64,000 nt of DNA from Planctomycetota bacterium (lineage in GTDB: Bacteria; Planctomycetota; Planctomycetia; Gemmatales; Gemmataceae). Under the pieces are notes generated by a model that worked only from the letters and a program-made list of their open reading frames with translations, did no database searches and was not told the origin of the DNA. The stretch lies in the NCBI GenBank assembly GCA_041180805.1, contig JBEGQX010000365.1, positions 28,359 through 92,358 of the forward strand. The letters run 5' to 3'. Shown here one piece after another: positions 7,714 to 62,546 of this stretch (positions are counted from its first letter, which is position 1; every line of letters starts with the position of its first letter). The position numbers were made by a program, and so were the translations under genes.

Positions 7714-7870
7714 AGAATTATGGAACCTTTCCTTTAAATCCCAAGTCTAAAGTACAATTGGAGATTTAAGGGAATTTCCCGGAAGTGTAAATAGAATTTC
7801 CCTTGTTCAGAATGTCTTGTTGGGTGATAATTTAAAGAAGGTTCATAGTCGCTTTTACGAGGATAATGCC

Positions 7871-9812: not shown

Positions 9813-10823
9813 ATGAGTCCTAATCGTTACTATGTTGGGTTGGATGTTGGTGGTACTGGGATAAAAGCCAGCATTATCACACAAGATGGCCAGTTGGTTC
9901 AATCCAGCCATGAACCCACCACGCAGGATGCCGGTCCTGATCATGGCTTGAAATTAATGAAACTCACCGTGGAACGCTGCCTTGAAAAGGCAGGAATCCC
10001 ACTTTCAGAGGTAGGGGCTCTTGGCGCCGGGGTACCTGGAATTATTGATTTAAAAAAGGGAATGATTTTAAACGCGGTAAACCTGCGTGGCTGGAAAGAT
10101 GTTGCTGTCAGGGAATATCTTGAAAAAACTTTTGGACTTCCTGTGGCATTTTTAAACGATGCCAATGCAGCGGCGCTTGGCGAAGCTTGGATGGGAGCCG
10201 GAAAAGGCTCCGAAAGCATGGTCTTGCTTACCCTGGGAACAGGCATTGGCGGGGGTATCATTTACCAAGGAAGGGTCATTGAAGGAAAGCATGGTCTTGC
10301 GGGGGAAATTGGACATACTCGTATTGAAATGCGAAGACCAAGGCCCTGTTCATGCGGTCAGTTTGGCTGCCTTGAGGCCTACGCAGGGGCATCCTCTGTA
10401 TTAAAACGAGCCTATGAGGCACTGGCTGAAGACTTCAACCATATCTCCAATCTTCATTCCAAGGCCGATGCGAAAACTCTTAGCTGCAAAGATGTATTCG
10501 ACGCTGCAAGTGATGGTGACCCCCTGGCAGACAGACTTGTGGAGGAAACTGCACTGGCGCTTGCGCTAGGCTTGGTGAATGTGCTTCACTTTTTTGACCC
10601 GGAAAAAATTGTCCTCGGTGGTGGAATGATCGGTGCTGGCGAAGACTTTCTAAACCGCGTGAAATGGTTCGTGGCTGATCAGGCTTTTCCCCAATGCGCA
10701 TCCCGTGAAAGTATTTGCTATGCCACCTTGGGAACGGATGCTGGCATTCTTGGGGCTGCGGTGGCAGCACGACAAATTTGTCAGTCAAGTTTCAGCGGTT
10801 ATTCTTCAACTTCATTTTCTTAA
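9813..10823 (+). CDS. ROK-family glucokinase
   Basis: N-terminal ATP motif [16 protein letters not shown] zinc motif [24 protein letters not shown]. Glycine-rich [10 protein letters not shown]. Confidence 0.8.
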
Positions 10824-11628
10824 AATCCCTTGTCTGGCCAGCTATGGCTTCCTCAACCGGCAGTCGCTCCATGGAACTTGCCCCATAGAAGCCATCCACC
10901 TCGGGTACTTTTTCAAGAACAAATTGGGCATCTTCAGGCATGGCAATGGGACCGCCATGGCAAAGCATCAACACTTCAGGCCGAATGGATTTGCAAACCT
11001 TTGCAATCGCAGCCACCTCTTGCGCAGACTGTTCTAATGTCTTGGCTGTCCTTGCACCTATGGCCCCCTTGGTTGTTAGGCCCATATGCGCCACCACTAT
11101 ATCTGCACCCGCTTCCGTCATCCGCCGGGCTTCCTCCACATTAAAAGCATATGGCGTTGTCAGAAGATCCAACTTTCTGGCCGCGGCAACACACTCCACT
11201 TCCAATCCGTAACCCATTCCGGTTTCTTCGAGGTTTTCGCGCATCAAGCCATCAATAAGGCCGACTGTTGGGAAATTTTGAATTCCCGCAAACCCCATCT
11301 CCTTGAGTTCCCTCAGAAAAAGGTCCCTAAGCATAAACGGGTCTGTGGCGCAAACTCCCGCAAGCACAGGTGTATGCTTTACCGCGGTAAGAACCTCGTA
11401 GGCCATTTCTTTCACAATCTGATTGGCATTTCCAAATGGAAGCATCCCGGCAAGCGATCCCCTACCTGCCATGCGAAAGCGACCAGAATTGTAAATGACA
11501 ATAAGATCTATTCCCCCTGCCTCTTCGCATTTAGCGCTAATTCCAGTTCCTGCGCCACCACCAACAATTGGAATACCCTTGGCAACTTGGGAACGAAGTT
11601 TTTCCAAAATTTCAGTTCTAACAGACAT
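10792..11628 (-). CDS. TIM-barrel phosphoenolpyruvate-hydrolase-like family protein
   Basis: 278 aa. The pattern [35 protein letters not shown]...HGGPI is typical of the TIM-barrel partner of UPF0261/Tm-1-like proteins. Its 3' end overlaps the ROK gene convergently by 32 nt. Confidence 0.6.
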
Positions 11629-12511: not shown

Positions 12512-12671
12512 TTAAAGTGATTTGGATAAAACTTTGCCTAAATGAAACCCGTAAGGTACCTGGTTGGTGGAATCAACCCAATTTGACACGCTCTTGAAAC
12601 CTGTCTTGTAGATTTTTCAAGCATTGTTATAATTCGGCCGCCTTGGAAAAGGCATTATCCAATTGCATGCC

Positions 12672-14129
12672 ATGGAGGGCAAAGCAGTGACTTCTTTCAT
12701 CCTTTTCAGTGCATTACTTATACAAAGCCAATCCAAGCCTGCCACCACAGACAAAGAACCTGTTCAAGCAAGCAATTTATCTTTTCGTTTACAGCAAGGC
12801 CAGGAACTGGTTTACCGTGGATTATTCATGGAAGAGGCAAACTCCAGCAGGGTGCAATTTCAACGGTCATACCGGGTGGAATGCAGGGCCCTTTCTTTGG
12901 GGTCTGATGATAACTCCTTGGAGGTGGCTACTCTTACAACATTAAAACAGCGCGCAAACCCGACAGCTTCTCCAACAGTAAGCTCCGAACCCCCTGCTAC
13001 GCATGTCCGGTTGGAAATACTTAAGTGCTCCAACCGAGGCCGCTGGCAACCCCAGGCAAACCAGGGACTGATGCCTCTTTCCGGCCCTCCCACCATGGAA
13101 AATGGCTTTATGGTGGAGATTCCAAAAAACCGGCTGACGGAAAAAGACACATGGGAAACTTCCGAGGATGGCCGGCCTGTTCGAACCTGGTCGGTCGCCG
13201 GATGGGAAACCCTTCAAGGGGTGCGCTGCTTGAAACTTGTGGGCATTCAACAAACTGAAGATTGGGAAAAACCCCGCGCAGACAGTAACGCCTGGAAACG
13301 AACCGACACCGTGTTTTTTAATCCTCAATCTGGAATCCCACAGAGATTTGAAAGGATGATTGAGACCAAAGATCCCGCGCACAGCACACCATCCCAGAAA
13401 AGCACGCTGCGTTGTGAACTTGAAACAAGCCTTTTCTATCCGGGTCAGTTGTTTGAGGATCGCAAAAAGGAAATAACCCTCGCCAAAAATTACCGCGATG
13501 GCATTAATCCCTACATGGAAGATGCCAGCCGTTATGCGAAGGATTTATCAGCAATCGGCAAAAGAATCGAAACTCAGATGGAATTACAAACACCGACCCC
13601 CTATCGCGAATCCATTTTCCAAACCAAGAAAATGGTGGAGATGGCCATCAAGGGGGAAACCCAGGATCGTGTTATTGTTCCGGTATCCACCAAAGGCCTG
13701 AAAGTGGCATCCATCGGAACCATGGCACCTGACTTTGTCGCACAGGACTTCATGAAGCTAGAATCCGTGCGTTTAAACCGCCTTCATGGAAAACCTGTTC
13801 TTATGGTTTTCTTTAATCCAAAATCACCCCTGGTGGATGAAGTCCTCGCATATACACAGGGAATCCAGAATGGATTTGGAAACCAGATTACTGTACTTGG
13901 AATGTCTGTGGTTGAAGACCAGGCAAAGGTGAAAAAGCTGATGGAAGCCGGCAAGTACAAATTTACGGTGCTGGACGGCAGCGGTCTCAGGACCAGTTAC
14001 GATCTGGAAGCAACTCCCAAAGTGGTACTGCTGGATTCCGAAGGGATTGTGAAGCTTTCATGCCTTGGATGGGGTCAGGAAACACAGCAAGAGATCATCC
14101 GGGAGATAAGAAAGGTTTTTCAGGAATAA
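12672..14129 (+). CDS. Secreted protein with a C-terminal thioredoxin-fold (TlpA/AhpC-TSA-like) domain lacking CxxC
   Basis: ATG at 12672 (the track ORF starts at a TTG at 12663). Signal peptide present. The C-terminal ~130 aa follow the TlpA layout (APDFVAQDF...GKPVLMVFFNPKSPLVDEVL...ATPKVVLLDSEG). The redox motif position reads S-P-L-V instead of C-x-x-C. Confidence 0.55.
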   Translation: MEGKAVTSFILFSALLIQSQSKPATTDKEPVQASNLSFRLQQGQELVYRGLFMEEANSSRVQFQRSYRVECRALSLGSDDNSLEVATLTTLKQRANPTASPTVSSEPPATHVRLEILKCSNRGRWQPQANQGLMPLSGPPTMENGFMVEIPKNRLTEKDTWETSEDGRPVRTWSVAGWETLQGVRCLKLVGIQQTEDWEKPRADSNAWKRTDTVFFNPQSGIPQRFERMIETKDPAHSTPSQKSTLRCELETSLFYPGQLFEDRKKEITLAKNYRDGINPYMEDASRYAKDLSAIGKRIETQMELQTPTPYRESIFQTKKMVEMAIKGETQDRVIVPVSTKGLKVASIGTMAPDFVAQDFMKLESVRLNRLHGKPVLMVFFNPKSPLVDEVLAYTQGIQNGFGNQITVLGMSVVEDQAKVKKLMEAGKYKFTVLDGSGLRTSYDLEATPKVVLLDSEGIVKLSCLGWGQETQQEIIREIRKVFQE

Positions 14130-18422: not shown

Positions 18423-18575
18423 GATTCTCCTTTCAAAAATTGATTACCAAGGCGTGAGAAGACATCATGGCTTGGAACCTCACACCAGTCAAACTTTTTG
18501 AAGATTCGATCCGGGTTTTTGCCAATCCGCTCGACCCCAAAAACTAACTTGGGTAAACTTGTTGAAGGTGAAACC

Positions 18576-19961
18576 ATGCTGATGTTCCAAGCAGGACAAC
18601 AACTGAATCGCAGATTATTCATGGCCCTTGGAATACCCATGGCAGGGCTTACAGGGAATCTCCATGGATTCGTCCCCACAAAGCCGGCCAAGGCAAAATC
18701 CGTCATTGTGCTCTTCTGTGGTGGAGGGCAAAGCCAGTTGGAAATGTGGGATCCAAAGCCAGATGCCCCAGCCGAGGTTCGTGGTGCTTTTTCAACCATT
18801 AACACAAAAACTCCGGGGCTTCGTTTTGGCGAACATATGCCTCAAATTGCCAGGCAGTCGCATCGATTTACTGTGCTTCGAAGCGTGAGCCACGATGATA
18901 CCGACCATGGTTCGGCCTGCTATTTAAGCCTTACCGGCCTCTTTCATGTTCAAAAATCAGCAAATCCGCCCCCAAAGCCTGATGACCCTCCAACGCTTGC
19001 CAGTATTTTTCGCAGGTTAAAACCCGAGGCACCCTTTGGATTCCCATCCGTGCATCTTAACGGGCCTCTGCTTGTTCCGGAACTTCCAAGCCCGGGGCAA
19101 AGTTCAGGATATTTGGGCAGGGTGATGGAACCCCTGGAGGTCGATCCCGAATTTCCCGAACGTTCACTGCCAGCTTTGGAAACCCGGGATGAACTGCCCG
19201 TTGTTCGCCTGCAAAAAAGACAATTACTTAGGGATGCCCTTGAACAGCACCAAAAAACTTGGGAGAAAACTCCCGGCCTTCTCGATTACGACCAGCGCTA
19301 CAGACAAGCCTATCAACTCATCAGTAATCCCATCGCCCGCTCCGCATTTGATTTATCTTCCGAACCAGAATCTGTGCGAAACAGGTATGGCAGAAATCGC
19401 TCGGGTCAGTCTTGCCTTCTCGCCCGCAGGCTTGTTGAAAAGGGTATTCCCTGGATCACGGTATTTTGGAATGGCAACATAAGGGGCCAGGACAAGGAAC
19501 CAGATTTAACCGATCAATATGGATGGGACACTCATAACGATATTTTTGAAGCCATGAAGGATCGGCTTTTGCCTCGCTTTGACCAGAGTTTCTCCGCACT
19601 AATTGAAGACCTTGACCAGCGCGGCCTTCTTGCAACAACGCTGGTAGTGTGCATGGGGGAATTTGGCAGGGCCCCCCTGGTTGCATTAGAACCACGCTTT
19701 GCCGGAGCCACCCCCGGAAGAAAGCATTGGGCTGCCGCTTATTCAGTGGTATTTGCCGGAGCAGGAGTCCAAAAAGGTGCCATACTCGGGGCAACTGATG
19801 CAAAGGGGGCTTACCCAACATTGGATCGAGTTTCCCCCATGGATATTCATGCAACCATTTTTGATGCCCTTGGAGTCGATCCATCAGGGGACTATCATGA
19901 TTTATTGAACCGGTCATCCCCCATTAGCAGGGGAAGGGTAATCAGTCGTCTTTATTCCTGA
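18576..19961 (+). CDS. DUF1501 domain protein (sulfatase-fold, Tat signal)
   Basis: ATG at 18576 follows GAAGGTG. Twin-arginine-like LNRRLFMALG. Family motifs GGQSQLEMWDPKPDAP and GEFGRAP...HW. Confidence 0.8.
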   Translation: MLMFQAGQQLNRRLFMALGIPMAGLTGNLHGFVPTKPAKAKSVIVLFCGGGQSQLEMWDPKPDAPAEVRGAFSTINTKTPGLRFGEHMPQIARQSHRFTVLRSVSHDDTDHGSACYLSLTGLFHVQKSANPPPKPDDPPTLASIFRRLKPEAPFGFPSVHLNGPLLVPELPSPGQSSGYLGRVMEPLEVDPEFPERSLPALETRDELPVVRLQKRQLLRDALEQHQKTWEKTPGLLDYDQRYRQAYQLISNPIARSAFDLSSEPESVRNRYGRNRSGQSCLLARRLVEKGIPWITVFWNGNIRGQDKEPDLTDQYGWDTHNDIFEAMKDRLLPRFDQSFSALIEDLDQRGLLATTLVVCMGEFGRAPLVALEPRFAGATPGRKHWAAAYSVVFAGAGVQKGAILGATDAKGAYPTLDRVSPMDIHATIFDALGVDPSGDYHDLLNRSSPISRGRVISRLYS

Positions 19962-26742: not shown

Positions 26743-26850
26743 GGCGCCGGAAGAGGCTAATCCACTGCACAAGGGTTTGCTGCGTATGGCTGCTCCTTCC
26801 GGCCTGACCAGGTTGACAACTACCCATTGCGTGGGGCCCCTCCCAGCGCC
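26743..26850 (-). ncRNA. ffs: Signal recognition particle RNA, small (4.5S) type
   Basis: The minus strand reads GGCGCUGGGAGGGG...GUCAACCUGGUCAGGCCGGAAGGAGCAGCCAUACG...CCUCUUCCGGCGCC. The central block matches the universal domain IV sequence (E. coli CCAGGUCAGGUCCGGAAGGAAGCAGCC), with a compensated loss of one U-A pair next to the GGAA tetraloop. The 14-nt 5' and 3' ends pair with each other. The RNA sits 42 nt upstream of dnaX, the classic ffs position, and is followed by CUCUUUUUCU. Confidence 0.8.
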
Positions 26851-28568: not shown

Positions 28569-28649
28569 TTCCATTTGTTTCATGGTCAGGACCCATCTTT
28601 ATGGGCCTGTATCAATGTTTATTACATTTTTATTTTTAGGAGATTTCAG

Positions 28650-29627
28650 ATGCTTTCCACCTTGGAAAGGTGCAGAAGAGCATTCACACTAATTGAACTT
28701 TTAGTGGTGATTGCCATTATTGCGATACTGATCGGGTTGCTACTTCCCGCTGTACAGAAAGTTCGAGAATCTGCAGCCAAGCTATCCTGCTCCAACAATC
28801 TTAAGCAGTTAGGACTGGCCATGCACAACCACGAATCCATGCTAGGGGTTTTTCCACAGGGCAGAAACGCCTACCCTAATGTGGTTTCTGCTCACGCAAG
28901 GCTTCTGGCCTTTCTGGAACAAGCAAGCCTGCAAAACCTAATTGATCCCAACGGCCCCCTTACTGTTGGCTCCCAAAATGATAGCGCTGCGAAAAACGGG
29001 GTTAAAATTTTGGTTTGCCCCAGCGATTCATCCCCAGGACAAATCTCAGGCAGTTCCTACTTTGGAACTAGTTATGTTGCTTGTACAGGCACCGGGGTCA
29101 CATGGGATGCCACCGGCAACATCATGGGTTACCTGACCATTGCCCAAAGCAATGGCGTATTTGCACAAATCCCCACCAGAATTGCAGATATCACCGATGG
29201 TTTATCCTCCACCGTCGCTTTCAGTGAAAGCAGCATCGGCACTGGGGTGCCTGTTTCATCTTTGCCCACCGATGAACAAACTCAGCGCAGAATCGTTCTG
29301 GAAGTACCCGGCGGCACCGACCCCACACCAGCCGCATGTTCCGGGGGTGCAGGCACATGGAACCCAAGGCGGGGCGAACAATGGATTAACGGGCACTATG
29401 GCAACACACTTTACAACCATTACTACACTCCCAATCAAAAAGGTGTTTGGGATTGTGGAAACGGCAGTCACAACAAGGGGCTTACAGCAGCACGCAGCAA
29501 CCACACCGGCGGCGTGAATATTTTACTCTGCGATGGTTCCATCCGTTTTGTGTCCAACAGTATCGATCCCACCATTTGGCGCAGTCTTTCCACCCGTGCT
29601 GGCGGCGAGGTGGCAAGTGTGCCATGA
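28650..29627 (+). CDS. DUF1559 protein with prepilin-type N-terminal cleavage/methylation domain
   Basis: ATG at 28650 lies 8 nt after AGGAG. N-terminus [35 protein letters not shown]-terminal H-X9-DG signature [18 protein letters not shown] and TRAGGE. Confidence 0.85.
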
Positions 29628-31082: not shown

Positions 31083-32465
31083 TTGAACAATTTTTACAGC
31101 AATGCTTGCAAAGAATTTAATGTGGTCAGCCAAAATAGAAGAAATTTTCTTCGAGTAGGCTCCCTTGGGGTTGCTGGCTTGTCTTTGCCAACCCTGTTAA
31201 GACATGAAGCCTTGGCAAGCGCGCTGGGGAAAAAGACTCACCGAGAAAAATCGGTTGTAATCTTGTGGATGCGTGGTGGTCCAAGTCAGCACGATATGTG
31301 GGATCCAAAGCCTGAAGCCCCGGTTGAAATACGTGGCGAGTTCAAACCAATAGCCACAAGTGTTCCAGGCATTCAGGTTTCCGAACTTTTGCCGAAAACA
31401 GCGGCAATCATGCATAAATGGGCAATTGTCAGGAGTCTGGCTCACCGTAATGAAGATGGTAATGTTGGCCATTCTGATGGAGATCAGATTTGCTTTACAG
31501 GCTACCGAAGCGGGCCAATGCCGGATGTCAATGTGATGCCGTCTTGTGGTTCTTATGCTGCCAAACAACTTCAGCATCTCGATCACTCTATGCCAGCCTA
31601 TGTAATGATCCCTAAAAATGTGCCAGGCACAGGGTCTGCGTGGCTTGGTAAAGCATATGCTGCTTTTGAAACTCAAGCTGACCCAGCATCCTCTGGACCA
31701 TTCAAAATACCCAACTTCACACTTGCTGAAGGTGTTACAGGACCGTTATTGAAAGAAAGAAATTCTCTACTTGGCGACTTAAACTCTCCTGAAATCGGAG
31801 AGAATATGAAGAATATCGGCGAATTCCAGGAAAAGGCGATCAATATTCTTACTAGTGGAAAGGCACAAGCTGCCTTCAATTTGGATAGCGAGCCTCAAAG
31901 TGTCAGGGAACGCTATGGCTTCATGCCAGCCTTTGACCCACAAGATCCTCAAAGGTGCGGGGCACCAAATTGGGCACAACGAATGCTTCTTGCCAGAAGG
32001 CTGGTTGAAGCTGGTGTAAGGCTTGTGACAGTGGATTTGCGTTGGTGGGATTTCCACAAGCAGGGTTTTGACTCTCAAAAGCGTGGTTTTCTTCCAAGGT
32101 GGGATCTCGCTTACTCGGCATTCGTTGAAGATTTGGAAGCAAGGGGTCTATTAGATTCCACACTTGTGGTAGCGTGGGGAGAAATTGGCCGAACACCCCA
32201 GGTAAATAAGGATGCAGGCAGGGATCACTGGCCATATGTAATGTCTGCGGCTTTCACTGGTGGTGGCGTTAAAGGTGGCACGGTTGTGGGAGCCTCTGAT
32301 GCCAAAGGCGCATTGCCCAAGGACAACCGCAAGACTCCCCAGGATGTTCTAGCCACAATCTACAGGCACCTTGGAATGGATTACAAAACTTCTTACATGG
32401 ACCACACTGGCAGGCCGCATGTAATGTTGCCCGAGGGTAATCCAATCGATGAGTTATTTAGTTAG
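31083..32465 (+). CDS. DUF1501 domain protein (Tat signal)
   Basis: Twin-arginine motif NRRNFLRVGS. Family motifs GGPSQHDMWDPKPEAP and GEIGRTP...DHW. The start is uncertain: TTG at 31083 or an in-frame GTG 36 nt downstream. Confidence 0.8.
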   Translation: MNNFYSNACKEFNVVSQNRRNFLRVGSLGVAGLSLPTLLRHEALASALGKKTHREKSVVILWMRGGPSQHDMWDPKPEAPVEIRGEFKPIATSVPGIQVSELLPKTAAIMHKWAIVRSLAHRNEDGNVGHSDGDQICFTGYRSGPMPDVNVMPSCGSYAAKQLQHLDHSMPAYVMIPKNVPGTGSAWLGKAYAAFETQADPASSGPFKIPNFTLAEGVTGPLLKERNSLLGDLNSPEIGENMKNIGEFQEKAINILTSGKAQAAFNLDSEPQSVRERYGFMPAFDPQDPQRCGAPNWAQRMLLARRLVEAGVRLVTVDLRWWDFHKQGFDSQKRGFLPRWDLAYSAFVEDLEARGLLDSTLVVAWGEIGRTPQVNKDAGRDHWPYVMSAAFTGGGVKGGTVVGASDAKGALPKDNRKTPQDVLATIYRHLGMDYKTSYMDHTGRPHVMLPEGNPIDELFS

Positions 32466-34624: not shown

Positions 34625-35581
34625 TTAGAAATCTCCTGCAACCTCACCACCAGCGCGCGTTCCAATCTTTTCCCATGTTTTGGGATCAATATTATTGGTA
34701 ATAAATCGAACCGAACCATCTCCTAGAAGACAATTGATGCCGCCAGAGTGCCTGCTTGTGAAATCCTCTGCATGAAAGGATCCATCCGGTTGAGGTTTAT
34801 TTGGCGTATGTGCAATTTCACCTGTGGCCGCATCGTTAATTCCAGTATGGCCAAGAATTAGTAATGAGGTGGTTTCACCGTCAAGGTCACCGCCGGGAAC
34901 CGCTCCCACCCAAGTACAAACTCCCATAATTCCGATGGTTGGATTGGCAGACCTTGAACTTCTTTCACCTATGAAAATGGTATTGCTTAAACCATCTGTC
35001 ACTTCACCGATGGAAATCCCCCGATTTCTCACGAACATTCCAACGCCAAGGGCAGGATCAATTGCCGCAAGTTCCTCTCCACCGTTCACACCCGCATAGG
35101 ATGATTTTGCAACTTGAATGTTGGCCCCATTTACAAGAAATTTGCTAACTCCATCAGAATCCGAAGGGCAAATGTAATTCTTCAAAACAGTTTCGCGAAA
35201 AGCCCTGACCGCAGCGTTGTTCGAAGTTACGCTCATGGTTTTAAAATCTACCGTTTTAGCCAAGGCTTCTTGCTCTAAAAATGGAAGAATGGCTGCGCCC
35301 CAACCCCAACCAGGGTTGAATACTTGATCAGGGTCAAAGCCATTGGGAATTCCCAATGGCTGATTACAGTAATAACCAGCAGGAAAAACTTTGTAGGTAC
35401 TCTCATAGTTCATTAGCGCCAAACCAATTTGCTTAAGATTATTGGAACAGGTAAGCCGAGCCGCGGCTTCCCGAACTTTCTGCACAGCAGGCAGCAAAAG
35501 ACCAATAAGAATGGCAATGATGGCGATCACAACCAATAACTCGATAAGGGTAAAAGCTTTAAGGCGGCTATTCTTAAGCAT
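34625..35581 (-). CDS. DUF1559 protein with prepilin-type N-terminal domain
   Basis: ATG at 35581 is preceded by GGAGG (the track ORF uses a TTG at 35599). N-terminus [35 protein letters not shown]-terminus [18 protein letters not shown] and TRAGGE. Confidence 0.85.
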
Positions 35582-35760
35582 ATTTAGGCCTCCAGCCAAA
35601 AAGTAATATAAGATAATACCAATGATATCGCCTCGTATAACTTTGTCAAACTTTTTTCAACCTCCATCCAATTATTACTGTTTTTTTGCCTTTCCTTAAC
35701 CTCCTTATCTCCTTTGGTAGCATTGACACAATCTTTCGCAAAAGAATATAACTTGTTCTC

Positions 35761-48180: not shown

Positions 48181-49029
48181 ATGATAGACGCAAGCAAAGT
48201 CCTTTACACCATAGAAAAAGCCACCCAAGCCACCCAAAAATACCCGTACAGGCAGGGGAGGGTTCTCCGAATACCTGATGCATCGGACATTCTTGTGGTT
48301 GGAGACCTCCATGGAAGAATGGATCTGTTTAAAAAAGCAGTTCAATTGGCAGATTTGAAAGCCAACCCTGGAAGGCATCTGGTCATTCAGGAACTCATGC
48401 ATGGAACCCAAACCTATGAGGATGGTTCTGACAATTCCCATCTCACCGTGGACATGGTGGCACTTCTCAAATGCCAGTTTCCGCTCCGGGTTCACTATCT
48501 GATTGGTAATCATGAACTTTCGCAAGCCACCAACAGGCGTGTCAGCAAGAATGGAAAAGATTTAAACCAGTTATTCGACATGGGTGTGGCTTTTGCTTAC
48601 CCGGAACACACCGATCAATTCCTTGAAGCCTATCGAAAACTTGTGGAAGAGTTACCCGCCCTTATACTTCTCCCTAACGGGGTAACCATTAGCCATAGTC
48701 TTCCTGATTCAACAAAAATGGACTCTTTCGATGTCCGAAAGCTGGAAGTTCTACCCACCACAAACGAGGAAACCACTCCGGGGGGCAGTTTGCATTCTCT
48801 TCTTTGGGGAAGAGATACTTCCGAACACAATGCCCAAGCGTTTCTTGAAAAGGTGAGGGGGAAATGGCTTATCACTGGTCACATTCCCGTGTTTCAAGGG
48901 GTTGATTTTCCAAACCCAAGGCAAATTGTGCTTGATGCTCATTTGGATGTCGGTGGTTACGCTCTGATCCCCGGACAAAGGGAAATATCACCCGGGGAGT
49001 TTCACGGATTGGCTGGTGTTCTGCAGTAG
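48181..49029 (+). CDS. Metallophosphoesterase (PPP-family Ser/Thr phosphatase-like)
   Basis: Motifs VVGDLHGR, GNHE and GH (LITGHIPV). Confidence 0.75.
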   Translation: MIDASKVLYTIEKATQATQKYPYRQGRVLRIPDASDILVVGDLHGRMDLFKKAVQLADLKANPGRHLVIQELMHGTQTYEDGSDNSHLTVDMVALLKCQFPLRVHYLIGNHELSQATNRRVSKNGKDLNQLFDMGVAFAYPEHTDQFLEAYRKLVEELPALILLPNGVTISHSLPDSTKMDSFDVRKLEVLPTTNEETTPGGSLHSLLWGRDTSEHNAQAFLEKVRGKWLITGHIPVFQGVDFPNPRQIVLDAHLDVGGYALIPGQREISPGEFHGLAGVLQ

Positions 49030-49045
49030 AGTTTTCAGGTGTGTG

Positions 49046-49744
49046 ATGGATTCAAAAAATACTACCACAAAAAAACTGCCATTCACCCCCCGGGATGCAC
49101 TGGGACCAACCCGCATTGAGAAGGTTATTGTTCATGAAAAAGAATTTCTCCTGGGAATTCCCACAGATACAGACAGGATGCTAAACCACCCTCAGGTACT
49201 GGCGGATATGCAGTATGAGGAAAATATGCCCTACTGGGCAGAGTTGTGGCCATCGGCGCGGATGCTGGCAAAACATATTTGGAAGCAAGAGTTTACCCAG
49301 GGCCAAAAGGCCTTGGAAATAGGATGCGGGCTGGGGCTCGTTGGAATAGTTGCGCTTGCCAGGGGCCTACAGGTCACATTCTCGGACTACGATGGCACCG
49401 CCCTGGAATTCGCATCTGAAAATGCAAAACGCAACGGGTTCAACTCTTTTGAAACCAGACAGATTGACTGGAGAGAAGTACCAGAAGGCCTGAGCTTTGA
49501 TTGGGTATTTGCTTCCGATTTAATCTACGAGAAAAGAAATGTGCAACCATTGGTGGCCATGATTGCCAAGACTCTTGCCCCTAAAGGCGTGTGCTTACTG
49601 ACCGACCAGGACCGCGCACCGGCGGAATTTCTTAAGGCGGAACTCAGCAAGGCGGGATTGTCATTTACCACCTCGCTGGTCCGGGCGGGTCAGCCCGGCG
49701 GAGACCGCTTCAAAGGTACTCTTTATCACATTCAAAAATCATGA
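49046..49744 (+). CDS. SAM-dependent methyltransferase (protein-lysine methyltransferase-like)
   Basis: ATG at 49046. WPSARMLAKHI followed by SAM motif ALEIGCGLGLVGIVALARG and ASDLIYE. Confidence 0.65.
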   Translation: MDSKNTTTKKLPFTPRDALGPTRIEKVIVHEKEFLLGIPTDTDRMLNHPQVLADMQYEENMPYWAELWPSARMLAKHIWKQEFTQGQKALEIGCGLGLVGIVALARGLQVTFSDYDGTALEFASENAKRNGFNSFETRQIDWREVPEGLSFDWVFASDLIYEKRNVQPLVAMIAKTLAPKGVCLLTDQDRAPAEFLKAELSKAGLSFTTSLVRAGQPGGDRFKGTLYHIQKS

Positions 49745-49814
49745 TTTGTCTTCGCACTTAGCGCGCATCACGCTAACATAACCTTTAGAAGCATATTGGT
49801 TGGAGGTTTAAATC

Positions 49815-50324
49815 ATGAATAGGATATTCGGCTTGGTGATACTGGCAGGAACCCTTATAGCCACCGCCTCCTTTGGCGGCGAAGTGACCGTAAAGACTGT
49901 TAAATACCCTGAACTAGCCAACCTGGTAAGAAGCCTCAAGGGCAAGGTCGTTCTTGTGGATTTCTGGCGGCACGACTGAGTGCCTTGCAAGAAGGAATTT
50001 CCTCATCTGGTTCAGATGCAGCAGAAGTTCAGCAACAGGGGATTCGTGGTGGTTTCGGTGCACTTAAACATGGGAGTGGACAAAGACCTTGGCCTTTCCG
50101 GAGTGGAGAAAACCGCCCAAAGCTTTCTTCAAAAAGTGAAGGCAGACTTTACCAACTTGATTCTGGATGAACCCGAACAAGTTTGGATGGCAAGGCTGGA
50201 AACAGGCGCGGTTCCCACCTTGTTTCTTTTCAACAAGCAAAACCGGATTGCCCAGAAGTTTATCGATATCGAGGATCAGGCAGCCTTCGAAAAAGAAATA
50301 AGCGAACTGTTGGACAAACCGTGA
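49815..50324 (+). CDS. TlpA/ResA-like periplasmic thiol-disulfide oxidoreductase, candidate selenoprotein (UxxC; TGA at 49977-49979 read as Sec)
   Basis: ATG at 49815 lies 7 nt after GGAGG. Signal peptide MNRIFGLVILAGTLIATASFG. The frame reads ...GKVVLVDFWRHD-TGA-VPCKKEFPHLVQMQQKFSNRGFVVVSVHLN..., which is colinear with the TlpA signature GK.VLVDFWATWC.PC..E.P.L. The TGA falls on the first Cys. A SECIS-like hairpin lies 15 nt downstream. Confidence 0.7.
49995..50030 (+). promoter_or_regulatory. SECIS-like bipartite hairpin downstream of the in-frame TGA
   Basis: Lower stem GAATTTC (49995-50001) / GAAGTTC (50024-50030): 7 bp with one G-U pair. Internal loop CT / CAGCA. Upper stem CATCT (50004-50008) / AGATG (50014-50018). 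Apical loop GGTTC. The apical loop sits ~30 nt after the TGA, in the range known for bacterial SECIS elements. Confidence 0.5.
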
Positions 50325-50821
50325 TGAATATTCCCGAATCAAAAGTCATAGAAATGGCAGACCCATCCCAGGCACTTGGAAAGATTCCAAGCGGTCTGTT
50401 TGTCATTACTTATCTTGGCAAGGATGACAAACCTGAAGGCATGCTGGCAAGTTGGGTTCAGCAATGTTCCTTGGAACCGCTTCTTATAAGCATCGCCCTG
50501 AAAGCAGGGCGTGGAATCCTTGAAAGCCTGACACCGGGCGCAAAATTCCATGTGCATGTGCTGCGAACCGGCCAGAACCAACTGGTCTCGCGTTTTGCGA
50601 AACCTTCCAACGGTGAAAATCGATTTGCAGAGCTCTCCATCCATCAGACCGCGGATATGCCGCCAATCCTTCTAGATGCCTGTTCGGTTCTTTGCTGCGT
50701 GGCGCAAAGCCATACCGGGGCCGGCGACCACCGACTTCTTCTGGCGGAGGTTTTATCAGGGACCCTGCTGGAAAGTGGAGACCCAATGGTCCATGTCCGA
50801 AAAAATGGAAGAAATTACTAA
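50324..50821 (+). CDS. Flavin reductase-like (FMN-binding split-barrel) domain protein
   Basis: The ATG at 50324 overlaps the preceding stop (TGATG). GLFVITYLGKDDKPEGMLASWVQQCSLEPLLISIAL matches the flavin-reductase domain pattern. The track ORF start at 50183 lies inside the upstream gene. Confidence 0.7.
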   Translation: MNIPESKVIEMADPSQALGKIPSGLFVITYLGKDDKPEGMLASWVQQCSLEPLLISIALKAGRGILESLTPGAKFHVHVLRTGQNQLVSRFAKPSNGENRFAELSIHQTADMPPILLDACSVLCCVAQSHTGAGDHRLLLAEVLSGTLLESGDPMVHVRKNGRNY

Positions 50822-50895: not shown

Positions 50896-52317
50896 ATGAA
50901 AAGACTTTTTGACAGGCTTGAATCCATTGTTGGGCCGGGAGCAATGATCACCTCATCAAGTGAATTGCTTGTTTATGAGTGTGATGGATTCACCATTGAA
51001 AAAAACAAACCTGATGTGGTTGTGTTTCCCACCACAACGGATCAAGTGGCGGAAATCGTGGCGGTATGCAGTCAGTTTGAAGTCCCATTCATTCCCCGCG
51101 GATCAGGTACCAGCCTGGCGGGAGGTTGCCTTCCCGTTGGTGGTGGTGTGGTTGTCTCGCTGGCTAGAATGAAAAAAATTCTGGAGGTGGATTACCGCAA
51201 CCAGTGTGCTCTTATCGAAGCTGGTGTCATCAATCTATGGCTTACCAATCACCTGAAAAACAATGGTTACCATTTTGCCCCTGACCCCAGCAGCCAGGGT
51301 GCCTGCACCATTGGCGGAAATGTCGCCACCAATTCAGGAGGTCCTCACACGCTGAAGTATGGCGTGACTGTCAATCACATAATGGGGCTGGAATTCATCA
51401 TGCCCGATGGCAGGGTTTACCACACTGGCGGCCCGGTGGAGGATACTCCCGGCTACGATCTTACCGGCGTCATGGTTGGTTCGGAGGGGACCTTTGGAGT
51501 TGCTACCAAGTCCTGGGTTCGCATCACTCGCAATCCGGAATCCTACCGAACGCTACTGGGTGTGTTTGAATCGGTGGATGATGCCACAAACACCATCAGC
51601 GAAATCATTGGAGCGGGAATCGTGCCGGCCGCCTTGGAGATGCTGGACCAAATGATTCTCGGCGCGCTTGAGGATGCGTTTCATTTCGGGTTCCCATTGG
51701 ATGCGGGTGCCATTCTGATCATGGAAGTAGACGGACTGGAAGCAGGGCTTCAGGATGAAGCCGACCGAATTAGCGCCATAGCCATGAAAAACAAAGCCCG
51801 CGAAGTTCGAAAAGCCTCCACAGATGCTGAAAGATTGTTGCTTTGGAAAGCCCGCAAGCAGGCTTTCGGCGCCGTGGGCAGGCTGGCCTCCAGTTTCTGT
51901 ACTCAGGATGGTGTTGTGCCTCGAAGCAAATTGCCCCACATTTTAAGAGTCATTCAGGAGATTGGCAAAAAGTACGACCTGAAGATATGCAATGTCTTCC
52001 ACGCAGGTGATGGCAACATTCATCCCATTCTTTTATTTGATGAAAGACACCCCGAGCAGGTTCGCAAAGTTTTGGATGCCAGCACTGAAATCCTTGACGA
52101 ATGCATCAAGCAGGGTGGCAGTGTCACAGGCGAACATGGCATTGGGGTGGAAAAAATCAGTTTCATGGAAAAACTGTTTGCCCCCGAGGACATCAAGATG
52201 ATGATTCGCCTTAGGGATGCCTTTAATCCGGAAAACAAATGCAGCCCCCATAAGATGCTTCCGACCTCCGGCGCGTGTGTGGAAGCTACCAAGGCTGGCC
52301 GCATGGCCGCGATGTAA
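50896..52317 (+). CDS. glcD: FAD-linked oxidase, glycolate oxidase subunit GlcD
   Basis: PCMH-type FAD-binding domain (PRGSGTSLAGG) and C-terminal GSVTGEHGIGVEK motif. 473 aa. Confidence 0.85.
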   Translation: MKRLFDRLESIVGPGAMITSSSELLVYECDGFTIEKNKPDVVVFPTTTDQVAEIVAVCSQFEVPFIPRGSGTSLAGGCLPVGGGVVVSLARMKKILEVDYRNQCALIEAGVINLWLTNHLKNNGYHFAPDPSSQGACTIGGNVATNSGGPHTLKYGVTVNHIMGLEFIMPDGRVYHTGGPVEDTPGYDLTGVMVGSEGTFGVATKSWVRITRNPESYRTLLGVFESVDDATNTISEIIGAGIVPAALEMLDQMILGALEDAFHFGFPLDAGAILIMEVDGLEAGLQDEADRISAIAMKNKAREVRKASTDAERLLLWKARKQAFGAVGRLASSFCTQDGVVPRSKLPHILRVIQEIGKKYDLKICNVFHAGDGNIHPILLFDERHPEQVRKVLDASTEILDECIKQGGSVTGEHGIGVEKISFMEKLFAPEDIKMMIRLRDAFNPENKCSPHKMLPTSGACVEATKAGRMAAM

Positions 52318-52342
52318 TTTAAGAAAACAGGATCAAATCAAC

Positions 52343-53575
52343 ATGACACTTTCTGCCACGCCTGAAAAAGCAAAGGTTCAAAAGCCAGCTTCCATCAAGG
52401 AAGCGTGTGAGATAATCACCGAAGCCAGAAATTATTCCCATGTGATTATTCCCACCGGAAATGGGACGAAAATGGCATTAGGGTACCCGTGCAAACGAAG
52501 CGCTGTTCACCTTGACACAAAGGCACTGGACAAAGTTATCGACTACCCCGCAAGGGACATGACCATTACGGTTCAGGCTGGAATTACCATGCAAAACTTG
52601 AGGGCTTTGCTTGCGAAAGAAAACCAGCGTCTGCCTGTGGATGACCCCTATCAGGGTGCAAGCACTCTTGGTGGCATGATTGCAACCAACACATCGGGGC
52701 CAAGAAGGTTCGGCTGGGGAACCTTGCGTGACTATGTGATTGGAATAAGCATTTTGAACGACGAGGGAATGGAAACCAAAGCGGGTGGCAGAGTCGTCAA
52801 GAACGTGGCAGGGTACGATTTCTGCAAACTGCACACCGGCGCGTTAGGCACCTTGGGGGTAATTTCCCAGGTAACCTTGAAAGTCCGTCCCGTTTCGGAA
52901 GCGAATGCCCTGGTGTTGGTTGGGCTGAACCCAAATGAGGTGGAATCCGCATTGAACTTAGTGCATCAAACATCCACCCGGCCAGTTGTGGTAGACATTT
53001 TGAACCCGAAAGCCACTTACCAATTCGGGTTGGGTTCGGGGGACAAATGGCTGCTCGCCGTAGGGTTTGAACATTCTAAAACCACCACCGACTGGCAAGT
53101 TCAAACCATCGCCAGAGAATTTCAGGATTTCTCATCAAGCACTGTCGAGGTCCTGGAAGGTTCGAACTCTGAAAAAGGCTGGAAAGCCTTGGAATCTTTT
53201 CAGGGACAACCCCAGTTTGATTCACCCGTAACATTTAAAGCTAATATCCCGCCGGCAAAAGTGGCAACCTGGAGCGAGTTAGCGAATCAATTGTTCCCCG
53301 AAGCGTTCTTGCAGGCGCATGCAGGGAATGGAATAGTATTCGGGCATATTCAAGGTCTAGACTTGAAAGACACCAAAAACGGCCTCAACCAACTCATGGA
53401 AAAAGCGGTTCGATACCAAGGCAATATGGTGCTGCATCGCTGCCCGGATTCCTGGAAGGAAGAATTGCCCTTATGGGGAACCTTGAGAGAGGATTTGGAG
53501 TTAATGCGTAAGGTAAAGCAGGCCATGGATCCACTGGGGTTATTCAACCCCGGGCGCTTCGTGGGCCGAATCTAA
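52343..53575 (+). CDS. glcE: Glycolate oxidase FAD-binding subunit GlcE
   Basis: ATG at 52343. FAD-binding PCMH domain (PTGNGTKMALG, VVKNVAGYD). Positioned between glcD and glcF. Confidence 0.75.
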   Translation: MTLSATPEKAKVQKPASIKEACEIITEARNYSHVIIPTGNGTKMALGYPCKRSAVHLDTKALDKVIDYPARDMTITVQAGITMQNLRALLAKENQRLPVDDPYQGASTLGGMIATNTSGPRRFGWGTLRDYVIGISILNDEGMETKAGGRVVKNVAGYDFCKLHTGALGTLGVISQVTLKVRPVSEANALVLVGLNPNEVESALNLVHQTSTRPVVVDILNPKATYQFGLGSGDKWLLAVGFEHSKTTTDWQVQTIAREFQDFSSSTVEVLEGSNSEKGWKALESFQGQPQFDSPVTFKANIPPAKVATWSELANQLFPEAFLQAHAGNGIVFGHIQGLDLKDTKNGLNQLMEKAVRYQGNMVLHRCPDSWKEELPLWGTLREDLELMRKVKQAMDPLGLFNPGRFVGRI

Positions 53576-56905: not shown

Positions 56906-56961
56906 CTATGTTCTATAGTACATTCAAGAATCTTAATCAACAGAATGCAAAGGGGCTGAGA

Positions 56962-57762
56962 ATGAGGCTGACAATTTCTTTGCTTATCGTGGCTGTTCTT
57001 TTAACCTCGGCGGGTTGCAGAAAGAAGCCTAAACCGGAAATGGAATCCATCGAAGCCCCTGCAAAAAAAACTGAGAAAAGCACCACCACATCCTCTTCCC
57101 AAACAGGAAACTCATCCCAACCACAAACAGCTCCCGCCCAAAATATAAAACGCAATATCGTTCAAAGGACCGGTACCAGCGACAAATTGCGTGGCATTTA
57201 CCGGGCATTGGAACTTTATTCCAACGATAACAATGGCAACTTTCCACCCGCGTACACAAAAAGCCCCGATGGCAAACCTCTTCTTAGCTGGCGGGTACTG
57301 CTCCTTCCCTACATGGAACAAGATAATCTATACAGAATGTTCAACCAGAATGAACCTTGGGATGGCCCCACAAACAAGCCACTTCTAAAAAATATACCCA
57401 AGGTGTATCTTTCCAGCAGCAATTACGATGTGAATGCTGCGTTTAAGACTACCATTCTTGCACCAGTGGCTCTGGAAACTGTTTTCCCACCCACTGGCCC
57501 CATCAACAGAAACGCAGTTTCCGATGGTTTATCCGGCACGATCCTATTGGTGGATGCGGATGATGAGGCAGCGGTCGAATGGACCCGCCCCAAAGACCTT
57601 CTTGTAACCAAGCAAAACCCAACTTTGGGGATTGGAAGCAGCCATGCTGGTGGAGTGATGGCTTTGTTTGGCGATGGAACACCAAGGATTTATCCCACGC
57701 AAGCTCCTATTATGGTTTGGGGTCGCTTCACCCGCGCAGGTGGAGAAACCCCAAATCCTTAA
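56962..57762 (+). CDS. DUF1559-like domain lipoprotein (no prepilin N-terminus)
   Basis: The ATG at 56962 gives MRLTISLLIVAVLLTSAGC (lipobox). An S/T/Q-rich linker follows, then DUF1559 hallmarks LLSWRVLLLPYMEQDNLY, HAGGVMALFGDGTPRIY and TRAGGE. Confidence 0.65.
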   Translation: MRLTISLLIVAVLLTSAGCRKKPKPEMESIEAPAKKTEKSTTTSSSQTGNSSQPQTAPAQNIKRNIVQRTGTSDKLRGIYRALELYSNDNNGNFPPAYTKSPDGKPLLSWRVLLLPYMEQDNLYRMFNQNEPWDGPTNKPLLKNIPKVYLSSSNYDVNAAFKTTILAPVALETVFPPTGPINRNAVSDGLSGTILLVDADDEAAVEWTRPKDLLVTKQNPTLGIGSSHAGGVMALFGDGTPRIYPTQAPIMVWGRFTRAGGETPNP

Positions 57763-61598: not shown

Positions 61599-62546
61599 AT
61601 GCTAAAGAAAAAAGGTTTTACACTTATTGAGTTATTGGTTGTGATTGCCATTATTGCGATTTTAATCGGTCTGTTATTACCAGCCGTCCAAAAAGTTCGG
61701 GAAGCCGCGGCAAAGGCAAAATGCTCCAACAGCCTAAAACAAATTGGAACAGCAATTCATAATTATCAATCTACTTTCATGTCTCTACCACCCGGAGATA
61801 CCGGTAATGGAAATAATGGAACCTGGCAACACTATCTCCTTCCTTATTTAGAGCAGGAAGCTCTGTTTAAAATGTACACAAATTTGGGTGGACAGAATGG
61901 AGGAACCCCTTCCTACGCAACGGCTGGAAACAACCTGACAGTATCCCAAACACAGATTCAGGCTCTTGTTTGCCCCAGCGAACCTAATGGTAAAGGCACA
62001 CATACGAACAACTACAAATTTCACAATTATGCGGTTAACTATGGAAATACCCACCGAACCCAAAACAAGGCTGGCAGGGACCCATTCCCCGCGGCAATTA
62101 GACCCAGTTTTGCCGGTGCGCCTTTTACTTTTAGTGGAACTTTTCCACCTGTGGCTTACGATTTCAGGGATGTTACTGATGGCCTCAGCAATACTTTACT
62201 TGCCGCAGAGATTCTTCAAGGAATCAGCATTCTTCCAGGCAACACCGAGTTTCGGGAAATGACTTGGTATGGCCCGGGAGCTGGCTTTACCACTTTCGCA
62301 ACGCCCAATAGCGCAACACAAGATAGAATTCAGTTTGCAAATTATTGCAATAATCAAGCAATTCAGGGGTTACCTTGTACTGCGGGAACCGATTGGGCAC
62401 TTGCCGCAAGAAGCAAGCATACAGGCGGGGTTAATGTTGGTTTATTGGATGGAGGTGTTCGATTTATCGCAAACAGTATCACACCTGTAACGTGGAGTTT
62501 ATTGGGATCATCAAAAGATGATCAACCTTTGCCATCAGATTTTTAA
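61599..62546 (+). CDS. DUF1559 protein with prepilin-type N-terminal domain
   Basis: [35 protein letters not shown]-terminus. [18 protein letters not shown] signature. Confidence 0.85.

Follow-up and report, generated by a model that had tools for sequence, protein, structure and literature searches.

A UGA codon predicted to encode selenocysteine in the gene for a putatively exported TlpA/ResA-like thioredoxin-fold protein of Gemmataceae-type planctomycetes

Introduction

UxxC thioredoxin-fold proteins (U, selenocysteine, Sec) are the commonest class of bacterial selenoproteins, and TlpA-like ones are already known. In bacteria, Sec insertion at UGA is directed by a selenocysteine insertion sequence (SECIS), for which the bacterial (bSECIS) model calls for 3-9 nt in the apical loop, 4-16 bp in the upper stem and a minimum free energy (MFE) of -7.5 kcal/mol or lower (PMC13188914, Fig. 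2A). The same model requires a G in the first or second loop position, or in both (N1 G [G|U] N N2), and places the element 16-37 nt from the UGA (PMC13188914). Cys/Sec-pair criteria for a bacterial selenoprotein gene include an in-frame TGA aligned with a conserved Cys of homologs and a Sec-insertion machinery (selA, selB, selC, selD) encoded by the genome concerned (PMC13188914). Among planctomycetes, selA, selB, selC and selD have been reported in Gemmata obscuriglobus and Isosphaera pallida (PMC4807772).

Here we examine a TlpA-like gene at positions 49815-50324 of a 64,000-nt stretch of contig JBEGQX010000365.1 (hereafter the window), which belongs to a metagenome-assembled genome (MAG) of the Gemmataceae (GCA_041180805.1). 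A first-pass annotation, made from the letters alone, had proposed that an in-frame TGA interrupting this gene encodes Sec. Judging from sequence comparisons, we consider it very probable that one gene spans 49815-50324 and encodes a TlpA/ResA/DsbE-like thiol:disulfide oxidoreductase, probably exported, with a Sec nucleophile (U55-V-P-C58), the UGA being recoded through a SECIS. Every sequence-level prediction of the selenoprotein proposal that we tested held, namely the Cys column, the conserved TGA, the excess of synonymous over nonsynonymous change and the hairpin.

Results

A single reading frame continues across an in-frame TGA

The frame that opens with the ATG at 49815-49817 encodes MNRIFGLVILAGTLIATASFGGEVTVKTVKYPELANLVRSLKGKVVLVDFWRHD and remains open up to an in-frame TGA at 49977-49979 (codon 55). 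On the 3′ side of this TGA, the same-frame continuation begins with VPCKKEFPHLVQMQQKFSNRGF (VPCKKEFPHLVQMQQKF) and ends at a second TGA, the stop at 50322-50324. The list of open reading frames (ORFs) at the locus holds two fragments only, one of 54 aa beginning with the ATG (49815-49979) and one of 114 aa beginning with a GTG (49980-50324). Sequence and translation therefore bear out the start codon, interrupting TGA and continuing frame given in the first-pass annotation, which had put the Shine-Dalgarno-like GGAGG at 49803-49807, one nucleotide away from its actual position (Table 1). Relatives have hydrophobic N-termini equivalent to that of the window protein, some of them with a lipobox-like LAGC or IAGC.

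TGA acts as a normal stop elsewhere in the window, where it ends 6 of the 33 long ORFs, and it also terminates the selenoprotein gene itself. Global reassignment of TGA was rejected for this reason. A mechanical scan of the window for further TGA-interrupted genes gave just off-frame noise and adjacent in-frame genes.

The joined protein is predicted to adopt a ResA-like thioredoxin fold

For protein searches we used the 169 residues with Cys put in for the TGA codon. In Pfam, the joined protein matches Thioredoxin_8, Redoxin and AhpC-TSA over a stretch that spans the TGA (residues 43-145, E ~1e-10); it passes the cut-off for PF00578 (37 bits vs 26) and misses that for PF13098 (23.3 vs 27). 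Its PDB matches include DsbE (3gl3, 9e-11) and B. subtilis ResA (1st9, 3.6e-10). In the alignment with ResA, the TGA codon coincides with the first Cys of the ResA CEPC motif, and the VPT of the window protein with the cis-Pro LPT. Cys also occupies the TGA column in the homologs P0001, P0011, P0014 and P0016, so that the placement of the stop codon on the nucleophilic Cys of a TlpA/ResA CxxC motif, as proposed in the first-pass annotation, proved correct.

A structural view is available through P0001, a Cys ortholog 68% identical to the window protein. Its AlphaFold model (predicted local distance difference test score, pLDDT, 87.9) has a thioredoxin fold, in which the Cys equivalent to U55 is residue 53, immediately before helix 54-73, with CVPC at the helix start. 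Foldseek placed ResA (2f9s/1st9) at the top of the matches to this model (E 2e-10, template modelling score 0.6-0.7), with DsbE, the DipZ C-terminal domain and CcmG also found. Between them, the alignment and the P0001 model contain the central insertion, the CxxC at the N terminus of helix 1 and the cis-Pro loop of the thioredoxin fold. By these comparisons, the predicted product is a ResA/TlpA/DsbE-like thioredoxin-fold protein with the TGA at the first Cys of CxxC.

Within this superfamily the protein is a relative rather than a member of the named groups that we considered. It falls well short of the NCBIfam cut-offs both for ResA proper (NF002854, 46.5 bits vs 170) and for TlpA proper (the equivalog NF047696, 40.5 vs 230). 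Among NCBIfam selenoprotein models none reaches its cut-off on this protein, and only two match at all, at ~19 bits: the SelL-related family NF040769 (19.7 bits vs 120) and the WAxxUGC ResA-like family NF041054 (19 bits vs 300), to whose motif corresponds RHD-U-VPC here. The HUIPC-motif family NF047660 was not among the matches at E <= 0.001. No selenoprotein names occur among the matches listed in two family searches.

The TGA is conserved and both of its flanks are selected as coding sequence

Orthologs were collected by protein similarity search, after which the contigs of the matching proteins were inspected at the DNA level. Its matches comprised one Cys ortholog of full length (P0001) and numerous 101-114-aa 'proteins' starting just past the TGA column. 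At the DNA level, five ortholog lineages with 61-93% identity (L001-5, L006/7, L009/10, L011-13 and L095) have the same operon and the same in-frame TGA after ...VDFWRHD. The operon and an in-frame TGA at this column also occur in L094 (VWSTT-TGA-VTC), which is ~40% identical, and in L014, which comes from a Gemmataceae MAG. L014 was the one family member among the matches listed from a profile search of genome contigs, which were mostly generic TlpA-family genes.

To this set we added metagenomic DNA matching the pattern TGA, N6, TGY, then ...AARGARTTYCCNCANYTNGT, which yielded 106 stretches, 97 of them distinct and with enough flank. The pattern demanded the TGA and the KEFP.L motif in all 97. 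Outside its demands, nearly all 97 have an open upstream frame with a hydrophobic or lipobox N-terminus and ...VKY..L....GKVVVVDFWxxx right before the TGA.

We compared the window gene with its orthologs over the 32 codons before and the 35 codons after the TGA. The nonsynonymous rate (dN) is 0.0-0.27, and the synonymous rate (dS) is large or saturated. By this measure, both flanks of the TGA are under purifying selection as one coding frame. Rather than the two separate genes or decayed pseudogene that the first-pass annotation had listed as the contrary outcome, the orthologs named above and the 97 metagenomic sequences keep the TGA, the orthologs with dN << dS.

Cys forms are abundant in the family, which numbers 931 database proteins at E <= 1e-20. 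They account for 113 of the best 120 full-length profile matches, with U at the active-site column in 0 of these 120, and we accordingly do not propose Sec as the prevailing state. Together with the TGC of P0001, this count answers the question, raised in the first-pass annotation, of whether homologs have Cys (or TGA) at this column. Many Cys forms are found in the same operon context as Sec forms.

The gene for P0001 (L008:498-998), which is closely related to the L001/L143-type orthologs, reads RHD-C(TGC)-VPC with nearly identical flanks. It nevertheless has a complete SECIS hairpin (-22.6 kcal/mol over 66 nt), and represents either a very recent Sec-to-Cys switch or a within-population variant. 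Two loci contain tandem same-strand paralogs in which a Sec form comes directly after a Cys form (L204:1501-2401 and L174:1602-2498). In L136 the order is reversed: the Sec form comes first (UGA at 267, counted on the Sec-gene strand, which is opposite to the stored one), and a Cys form with a different peptide motif comes after it, at 704-1123 on that strand. Tandem Cys/Sec pairs could act as a selenium-availability backup. A few Sec-form members look damaged: the upstream part of L153 is out of frame, and L109/L127 have premature stops 33/65 codons past the UGA. Such copies either reflect faulty assembly or are true pseudogenes.

A hairpin at SECIS distance is maintained in Sec forms

The bipartite hairpin that the first-pass annotation described at 49995-50030 is present as described, with an MFE of -10.9 kcal/mol and one U-G among the 7 bp of its lower stem (Table 1). 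We next considered the 97 Sec forms, counting positions from the U of the UGA. The RNAalifold consensus pairs positions 27-32 with 38-43 (GCAUCU/AGAUGC), closing a GGUYS loop, and 98.8% of the cells in this core helix are paired. Base pairs are exchanged within the helix: pair 30-40 is U-A in 83 sequences, A-U in 10 and unpaired in 4, the change from U-A to A-U turning His CAU and Met AUG into Gln CAA and Leu UUG, and pair 27-43 is G-C in 93, A-U in 1 and unpaired in 3. The observed covariation was reached by 0 of 500 column shuffles, and slid registers gave 25-45% pairing.

The stem also constrains synonymous positions that the search pattern left free. Using the codon use of the same genes as background, we found Pro CCG in 93 of 97 stems (background 0.51), His CAU in 83 of 87 (0.41), Leu CUG in 97 of 97 (0.42) and NAG in 97 of 97 (0.65). 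Synonymous sites flanking the stem vary freely (GAA/GAG 57/40; TTT/TTC 49/48). Nominal binomial P values for these counts overstate independence because the sequences are phylogenetically related; the saturation of neighbouring synonymous sites, however, argues against simple inheritance as the cause of the frozen stem codons.

Cys forms with the same peptide motif do not keep the hairpin codons, and this includes the within-contig Cys/Sec pairs. Read from the Pro codon, the Cys form of L204 has CCT CAC CTG GTC GAG CTC and the Cys paralog of L174 has CCG CAC CTC GTG GAG ATG, whereas the Sec paralogs on the same two contigs both have CCG CAT CTG GTC GAG ATG. A further Cys form, in L205, has CCC CAC CTC GTC GAA CTG.

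Both the window hairpin, whose upper stem can be read as 6 bp with loop GUU or as 5 bp with loop GGUUC, and the family core, with 6 bp and 5 nt, fall within the stem and loop sizes of the bSECIS model. The window loop, G-G-U-U-C, has the G that the model expects, and GGU (positions 33-35) is invariant in 97 of 97 Sec forms, positions 34-35 being fixed by the search pattern and G33 alone free. The apical loop comes 29-30 nt after the UGA (positions 4 to 32/33), inside the modelled spacing, and the energy limit is passed by the window hairpin and, over positions 19-54, by 96 of the 97 relatives. In the RHD-U clade the 7-bp lower stem pairs fully; family-wide the figure is 73.9% of cells, since at the site of this clade's Phe (UUC) the majority of members carry Tyr (UAC). 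The lower stem is therefore a clade-specific extension. Thus, of the SECIS geometry set out in the first-pass annotation, the upper stem-loop stands as the family core and agrees with the bSECIS constraints, and the 7-bp lower stem applies to the clade. The comparative sequence data strongly support identification of the hairpin as a bacterial SECIS, conserved specifically in Sec forms at SECIS distance.

A selB gene accompanies a family member in the lineage

We searched the window for Sec machinery using Pfam on ~40 ORFs, tblastn with E. coli SelA, SelB and SelD, and ARAGORN for tRNA. Pfam and tblastn gave no sel gene there, and ARAGORN found zero tRNA genes in the window and no tRNA-Sec in the fetched relative loci. 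One Sec-form family member (UGA at L173:3347) shares its contig with a selB gene ~5 kb away (L173:8316-10403, minus strand), just past GlcDEF-like genes. This selB is full-length, and its product has the GTP_EFTU, SelB beta-barrel and SelB wing-3 domains. The other 119 of its best 120 homologs are 76-84% identical, and the organism-named ones are from Gemmataceae; no protein with the source-MAG locus tag RL595 is among these best 120. From this distribution, and from the sel genes reported in Gemmata obscuriglobus (PMC4807772), we infer Sec machinery for the window gene at the level of the lineage.

Two further observations concern selB neighbours. Adjoining the L173 selB is a 385-aa ORF (10431-11588, minus strand) with no Pfam match. 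In L019, from a Terriglobia MAG, a selB homolog (324-2180, minus strand) adjoins a Cys-type (WCPPC) TlpA-like gene (3001-3300, plus strand); this adjacency is possibly a coincidence.

The window itself is dense in planctomycete families, including PSCyt1/PSCyt2/PSD1, DUF1501 and DUF1559 (N-terminal methylation motif), and also encodes WD40 proteins (Table 1). The planctomycete-specific families confirm the phylum assignment. Eight of the window proteins are identical to entries of the Planctomycetota MAG within the range MEY4396073-MEY4396117 (locus tags RL595_3322-3366), and their 90% clusters contain proteins named as from Gemmataceae.

Gene neighbourhood and other features of the window

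The Sec-TlpA gene stands in a conserved gene order of metallophosphoesterase, methyltransferase, Sec-TlpA gene, flavin reductase and GlcD/E/F-like oxidase (Table 1). Orthologs keep this neighbourhood, and it occurs in Cys-form loci; among Sec-form loci with enough flank, the share that has it is approximately half to two-thirds. With enough flank to judge, the flavin reductase is directly downstream in 43 of 77 Sec-form loci, and it is found in Cys-form loci too; the methyltransferase is upstream in 29 of 55 Sec-form loci and also in ortholog loci. Pfam searches of the neighbours found no cytochrome c maturation or Sco/CoxB genes in the gene context. The conserved neighbourhood suggests co-expression, with no pathway identified from it.

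Further downstream, the ORFs called mechanically for the GlcD-like (50896-52317) and GlcE-like (52217-53575) proteins overlap by ~100 nt. Orthologous loci have a gap of 18-28 nt between the end of the first gene and the start of the second, and the GlcE-like start is therefore probably farther downstream. The sole window Rfam match at the gathering threshold is a full-length bacterial small signal recognition particle RNA at 26747-26843 on the minus strand (RF00169, 51.3 bits). A second protein with thioredoxin-like sequence, of 488 aa, is encoded at 12663-14129 on the plus strand; the similarity, to AhpC/TSA and to ResA-like thioredoxin folds, lies in its last 130 residues. Since the protein is without any CxxC, this may be a redox-inactive or single-Cys thioredoxin-fold domain attached to a long N-terminal region.

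Table 1. Coordinates of the predicted selenoprotein gene, its elements and other annotated features of the window.
Feature	Position	Strand	Basis
Complete selenoprotein coding sequence (predicted): 169 codons including Sec55, plus stop TGA 50322-50324; TlpA/ResA/DsbE-like thioredoxin-fold product	49815-50324	+	translation, Pfam, PDB matches
Shine-Dalgarno-like GGAGG, 8 nt 5′ of the ATG	49802-49806	+	read off sequence
N-terminal hydrophobic putative export signal MNRIFGLVILAGTLIATASFGG	49815-49880	+	read off sequence
In-frame UGA as predicted selenocysteine U55, first residue of the U-V-P-C redox motif	49977-49979	+	aligns with Cys in homologs
Putative resolving Cys C58 of the UxxC motif	49986-49988	+	invariant column in family protein alignment
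Putative SECIS hairpin in RHD-U clade: lower stem 49995-50001/50024-50030, internal loop, upper stem 50004-50009/50013-50018, apical G-GUU-C	49995-50030	+	folding
Putative family-wide SECIS core, alignment positions 27-43: 6-bp stem and 5-nt loop GGUYS	50003-50019	+	RNAalifold consensus
Cis-Pro-loop proline P134, thioredoxin fold	50214-50216	+	invariant in family protein alignment; aligns with ResA LPT
Metallophosphoesterase, farther upstream	48181-49029	+	Pfam Metallophos; conserved synteny
S-adenosylmethionine (SAM) methyltransferase (Methyltransf_16-like), upstream	49016-49744	+	Pfam
Flavin reductase, ATG sharing base 50324 with the selenoprotein stop (TGATG)	50324-50821	+	Pfam Flavin_Reduct 1.7e-26
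Planctomycete-family/WD40 genes	2573-4999, 5018-7081, 7817-9703, 18498-19961, 31083-32465, 28575-29627, 34625-35599, 56908-57762, 61599-62546		

Discussion

The conservation pattern and the known bacterial mechanism together point to how this gene may be expressed. The UGA at 49977-49979 would be recoded during translation, with Sec inserted instead of termination, and the hairpin that starts 15 nt past it would recruit SelB-GTP-Sec-tRNASec to the ribosome via its apical loop. The N-terminal hydrophobic signal would probably direct the protein out of the cytoplasm. The U55 selenolate could then attack a substrate disulfide or other oxidised sulfur species, and C58 would resolve the resulting selenenylsulfide. 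By analogy with other TlpA-family reductases, the protein may be re-reduced by CcdA/DsbD-type membrane electron transfer.

Several observations weigh against a SECIS-directed selenoprotein at this locus. The fold of the window sequence alone is no better than those of its dinucleotide shuffles (64 nt, -16.1 kcal/mol, z = -0.34), and the significance of the hairpin therefore comes from comparative data only. The outermost core pair (50003/50019) is a U-C mismatch in the window, as it is in two other sequences, and the independent Cys-form DNA controls number three only. Rfam has no family for bacterial SECIS of this type, and a permissive scan of 49900-50120 gave a chance small nucleolar RNA (snoRNA) match (E 4.9). 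Because the search pattern required TGA, the 97 metagenomic sequences alone cannot exclude TAA or TAG at this column. Finally, our searches found no selA, selB, selD or tRNA-Sec within the 64-kb window.

Among the alternatives, the one that survives best is SelB-independent read-through, in which the hairpin would stimulate a near-cognate tRNA to place Trp, Cys or Arg at the UGA. Hairpins 3′ of stop codons can promote read-through, and within the window no Sec-specific machinery was seen for this genome. We nonetheless consider it improbable. The UGA lies exactly on the redox-active Cys column, where only Cys or Sec can function, and near-cognate decoding would be inefficient and mostly non-Cys. 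Furthermore, the hairpin fits the SelB-type bSECIS model in its loop G and its spacing from the UGA, and selB is present on the contig of one family member and widespread in Gemmataceae.

Two other explanations are less probable again, to about the same degree. In the first, the locus is a pseudogene, in which a nonsense mutation changed the Cys codon of a TlpA-like gene to TGA and no full-length product is made. TGC and TGT are each one step from TGA, a close relative has TGC, and a few metagenomic members, as described above, appear frameshifted upstream (L153) or truncated downstream (L109, L127). Decay, however, would show none of what we observe: a TGA kept in orthologs down to ~40% identity and in 97 distinct sequences, purifying selection on both flanks, and a hairpin held by synonymous-site selection only in TGA forms.

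In the second, the locus makes two products, a 54-residue leader that ends at the TGA and a 114-residue protein re-initiated at GTG 49980. Gene callers yield exactly these ORFs, and in the window the GTG adjoins the TGA. In relatives, however, the codon right after the TGA is usually not a start codon; it is mostly CTG, with ATC, ATT, GGG and others also found. Neither half makes a plausible protein by itself, as the first-pass annotation had argued: the 5′ part amounts to a signal peptide and one strand, and the 3′ part is without an export signal, the first beta-strand and the nucleophile. Moreover, Cys forms are single full-length proteins. A sequencing or assembly error for a true TGC or TGT, for which one might cite the metagenomic origin of the window and the TGC of L008, can be set aside as the least probable explanation of all, since the TGA recurs at the same position in assemblies made independently of one another, from many samples and by many pipelines (JGI, ENA, Logan, NCBI).

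The preferred reading, a Sec-encoding UGA within a single gene, has consequences for annotation. In hundreds of metagenomic contigs, gene calls either divide it in two or give a shortened protein of 101-114 aa. Our data suggest that in the source MAG, too, the selenoprotein is annotated as fragments and not as one Sec coding sequence. The accession numbering there, as far as can be inferred from the numbers, allots three entries (MEY4396112-114) to the interval between the methyltransferase and GlcD. A different outcome is seen at L206:131-631, where the JGI protein (P0015) has Trp at the active-site column and the DNA has a stop codon; this protein was evidently called with a TGA=Trp code, which hides the Sec form as a 'WLVC' protein.

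Since UxxC thioredoxin-fold selenoproteins are known and Sec use by planctomycetes has been reported (PMC4807772), the gene joins a known class. As a tentative proposal, one that we think could well be wrong, the KKEFPHLV[EQ]M clade may constitute a large uncatalogued selenoprotein family of Gemmataceae-type planctomycetes, with frequent Sec/Cys interchange that includes tandem paralogs, a uniform SECIS maintained through synonymous codon choice, and a conserved gene cluster. If so, the cluster could mark an uncharacterised envelope redox pathway. A clade-specific model would recover a sizeable set of missed selenoproteins and mark Sec use in Gemmataceae-type planctomycetes. For a phylum with a sparsely described selenoproteome, the gene would supply a thiol-disulfide reductase that is predicted to be exported and to depend on Sec. 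Together with Cys paralogs from the same genomes, the 97 Sec forms also make a natural data set for a SECIS overlaid on a constrained peptide. Knowledge of Sec decoding itself is unchanged by these findings; their value lies in corrected annotation and a comparative data set rather than in a new principle.

Comparison with described systems places the locus as follows. It resembles published UxxC thioredoxin-fold selenoproteins in having predicted Sec in place of the first CxxC Cys, a putative SECIS just downstream in the coding region and abundant Cys homologs. Unlike the published examples from Geobacter, Syntrophus and other Deltaproteobacteria, which we compare by their description, it belongs to a planctomycete clade with a KKEFPHLV[EQ]M signature and a conserved operon of its own. 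Closer in phylogeny are the 'thiol-disulfide isomerase-like thioredoxin' candidates of the planctomycete P1 (PMC4807772, Table S9), which are likewise thioredoxin-like and split at a TGA in automatic annotation. P1, again compared by description, is of a different planctomycete lineage (a marine macroalga associate), and its candidates have SECIS 'no' in Table S9.

The WAxxUGC family (NF041054), also a TlpA/ResA-like selenoprotein family, shows that Sec was already known in this superfamily. Its motif is UGC, whereas the motif here is U-x-x-C (W-R-H-D-U-V-P-C), and its profile spans 354 positions compared with 169 residues. At the RNA level, the hairpin is like the E. coli fdhF-type SECIS and the bSECIS consensus in lying just past the UGA inside the ORF and in having a small apical loop with G followed by G/U. 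It differs from the E. coli fdhF SECIS in its stem sequence, with no bulged U identifiable here. The E. coli fdhF loop also has a GGUC-like sequence, whose G and U contact SelB. As a protein, the predicted product has its best sequence and structure matches in ResA, TlpA, CcmG (DsbE) and the DipZ C-terminal domain. It shares their cis-Pro loop and central insertion as well as the placement of the active site, and its hydrophobic N-terminus would correspond to their export signal or membrane anchor. What would set it apart from the Cys-based ResA/TlpA/CcmG reductases is Sec in place of Cys.

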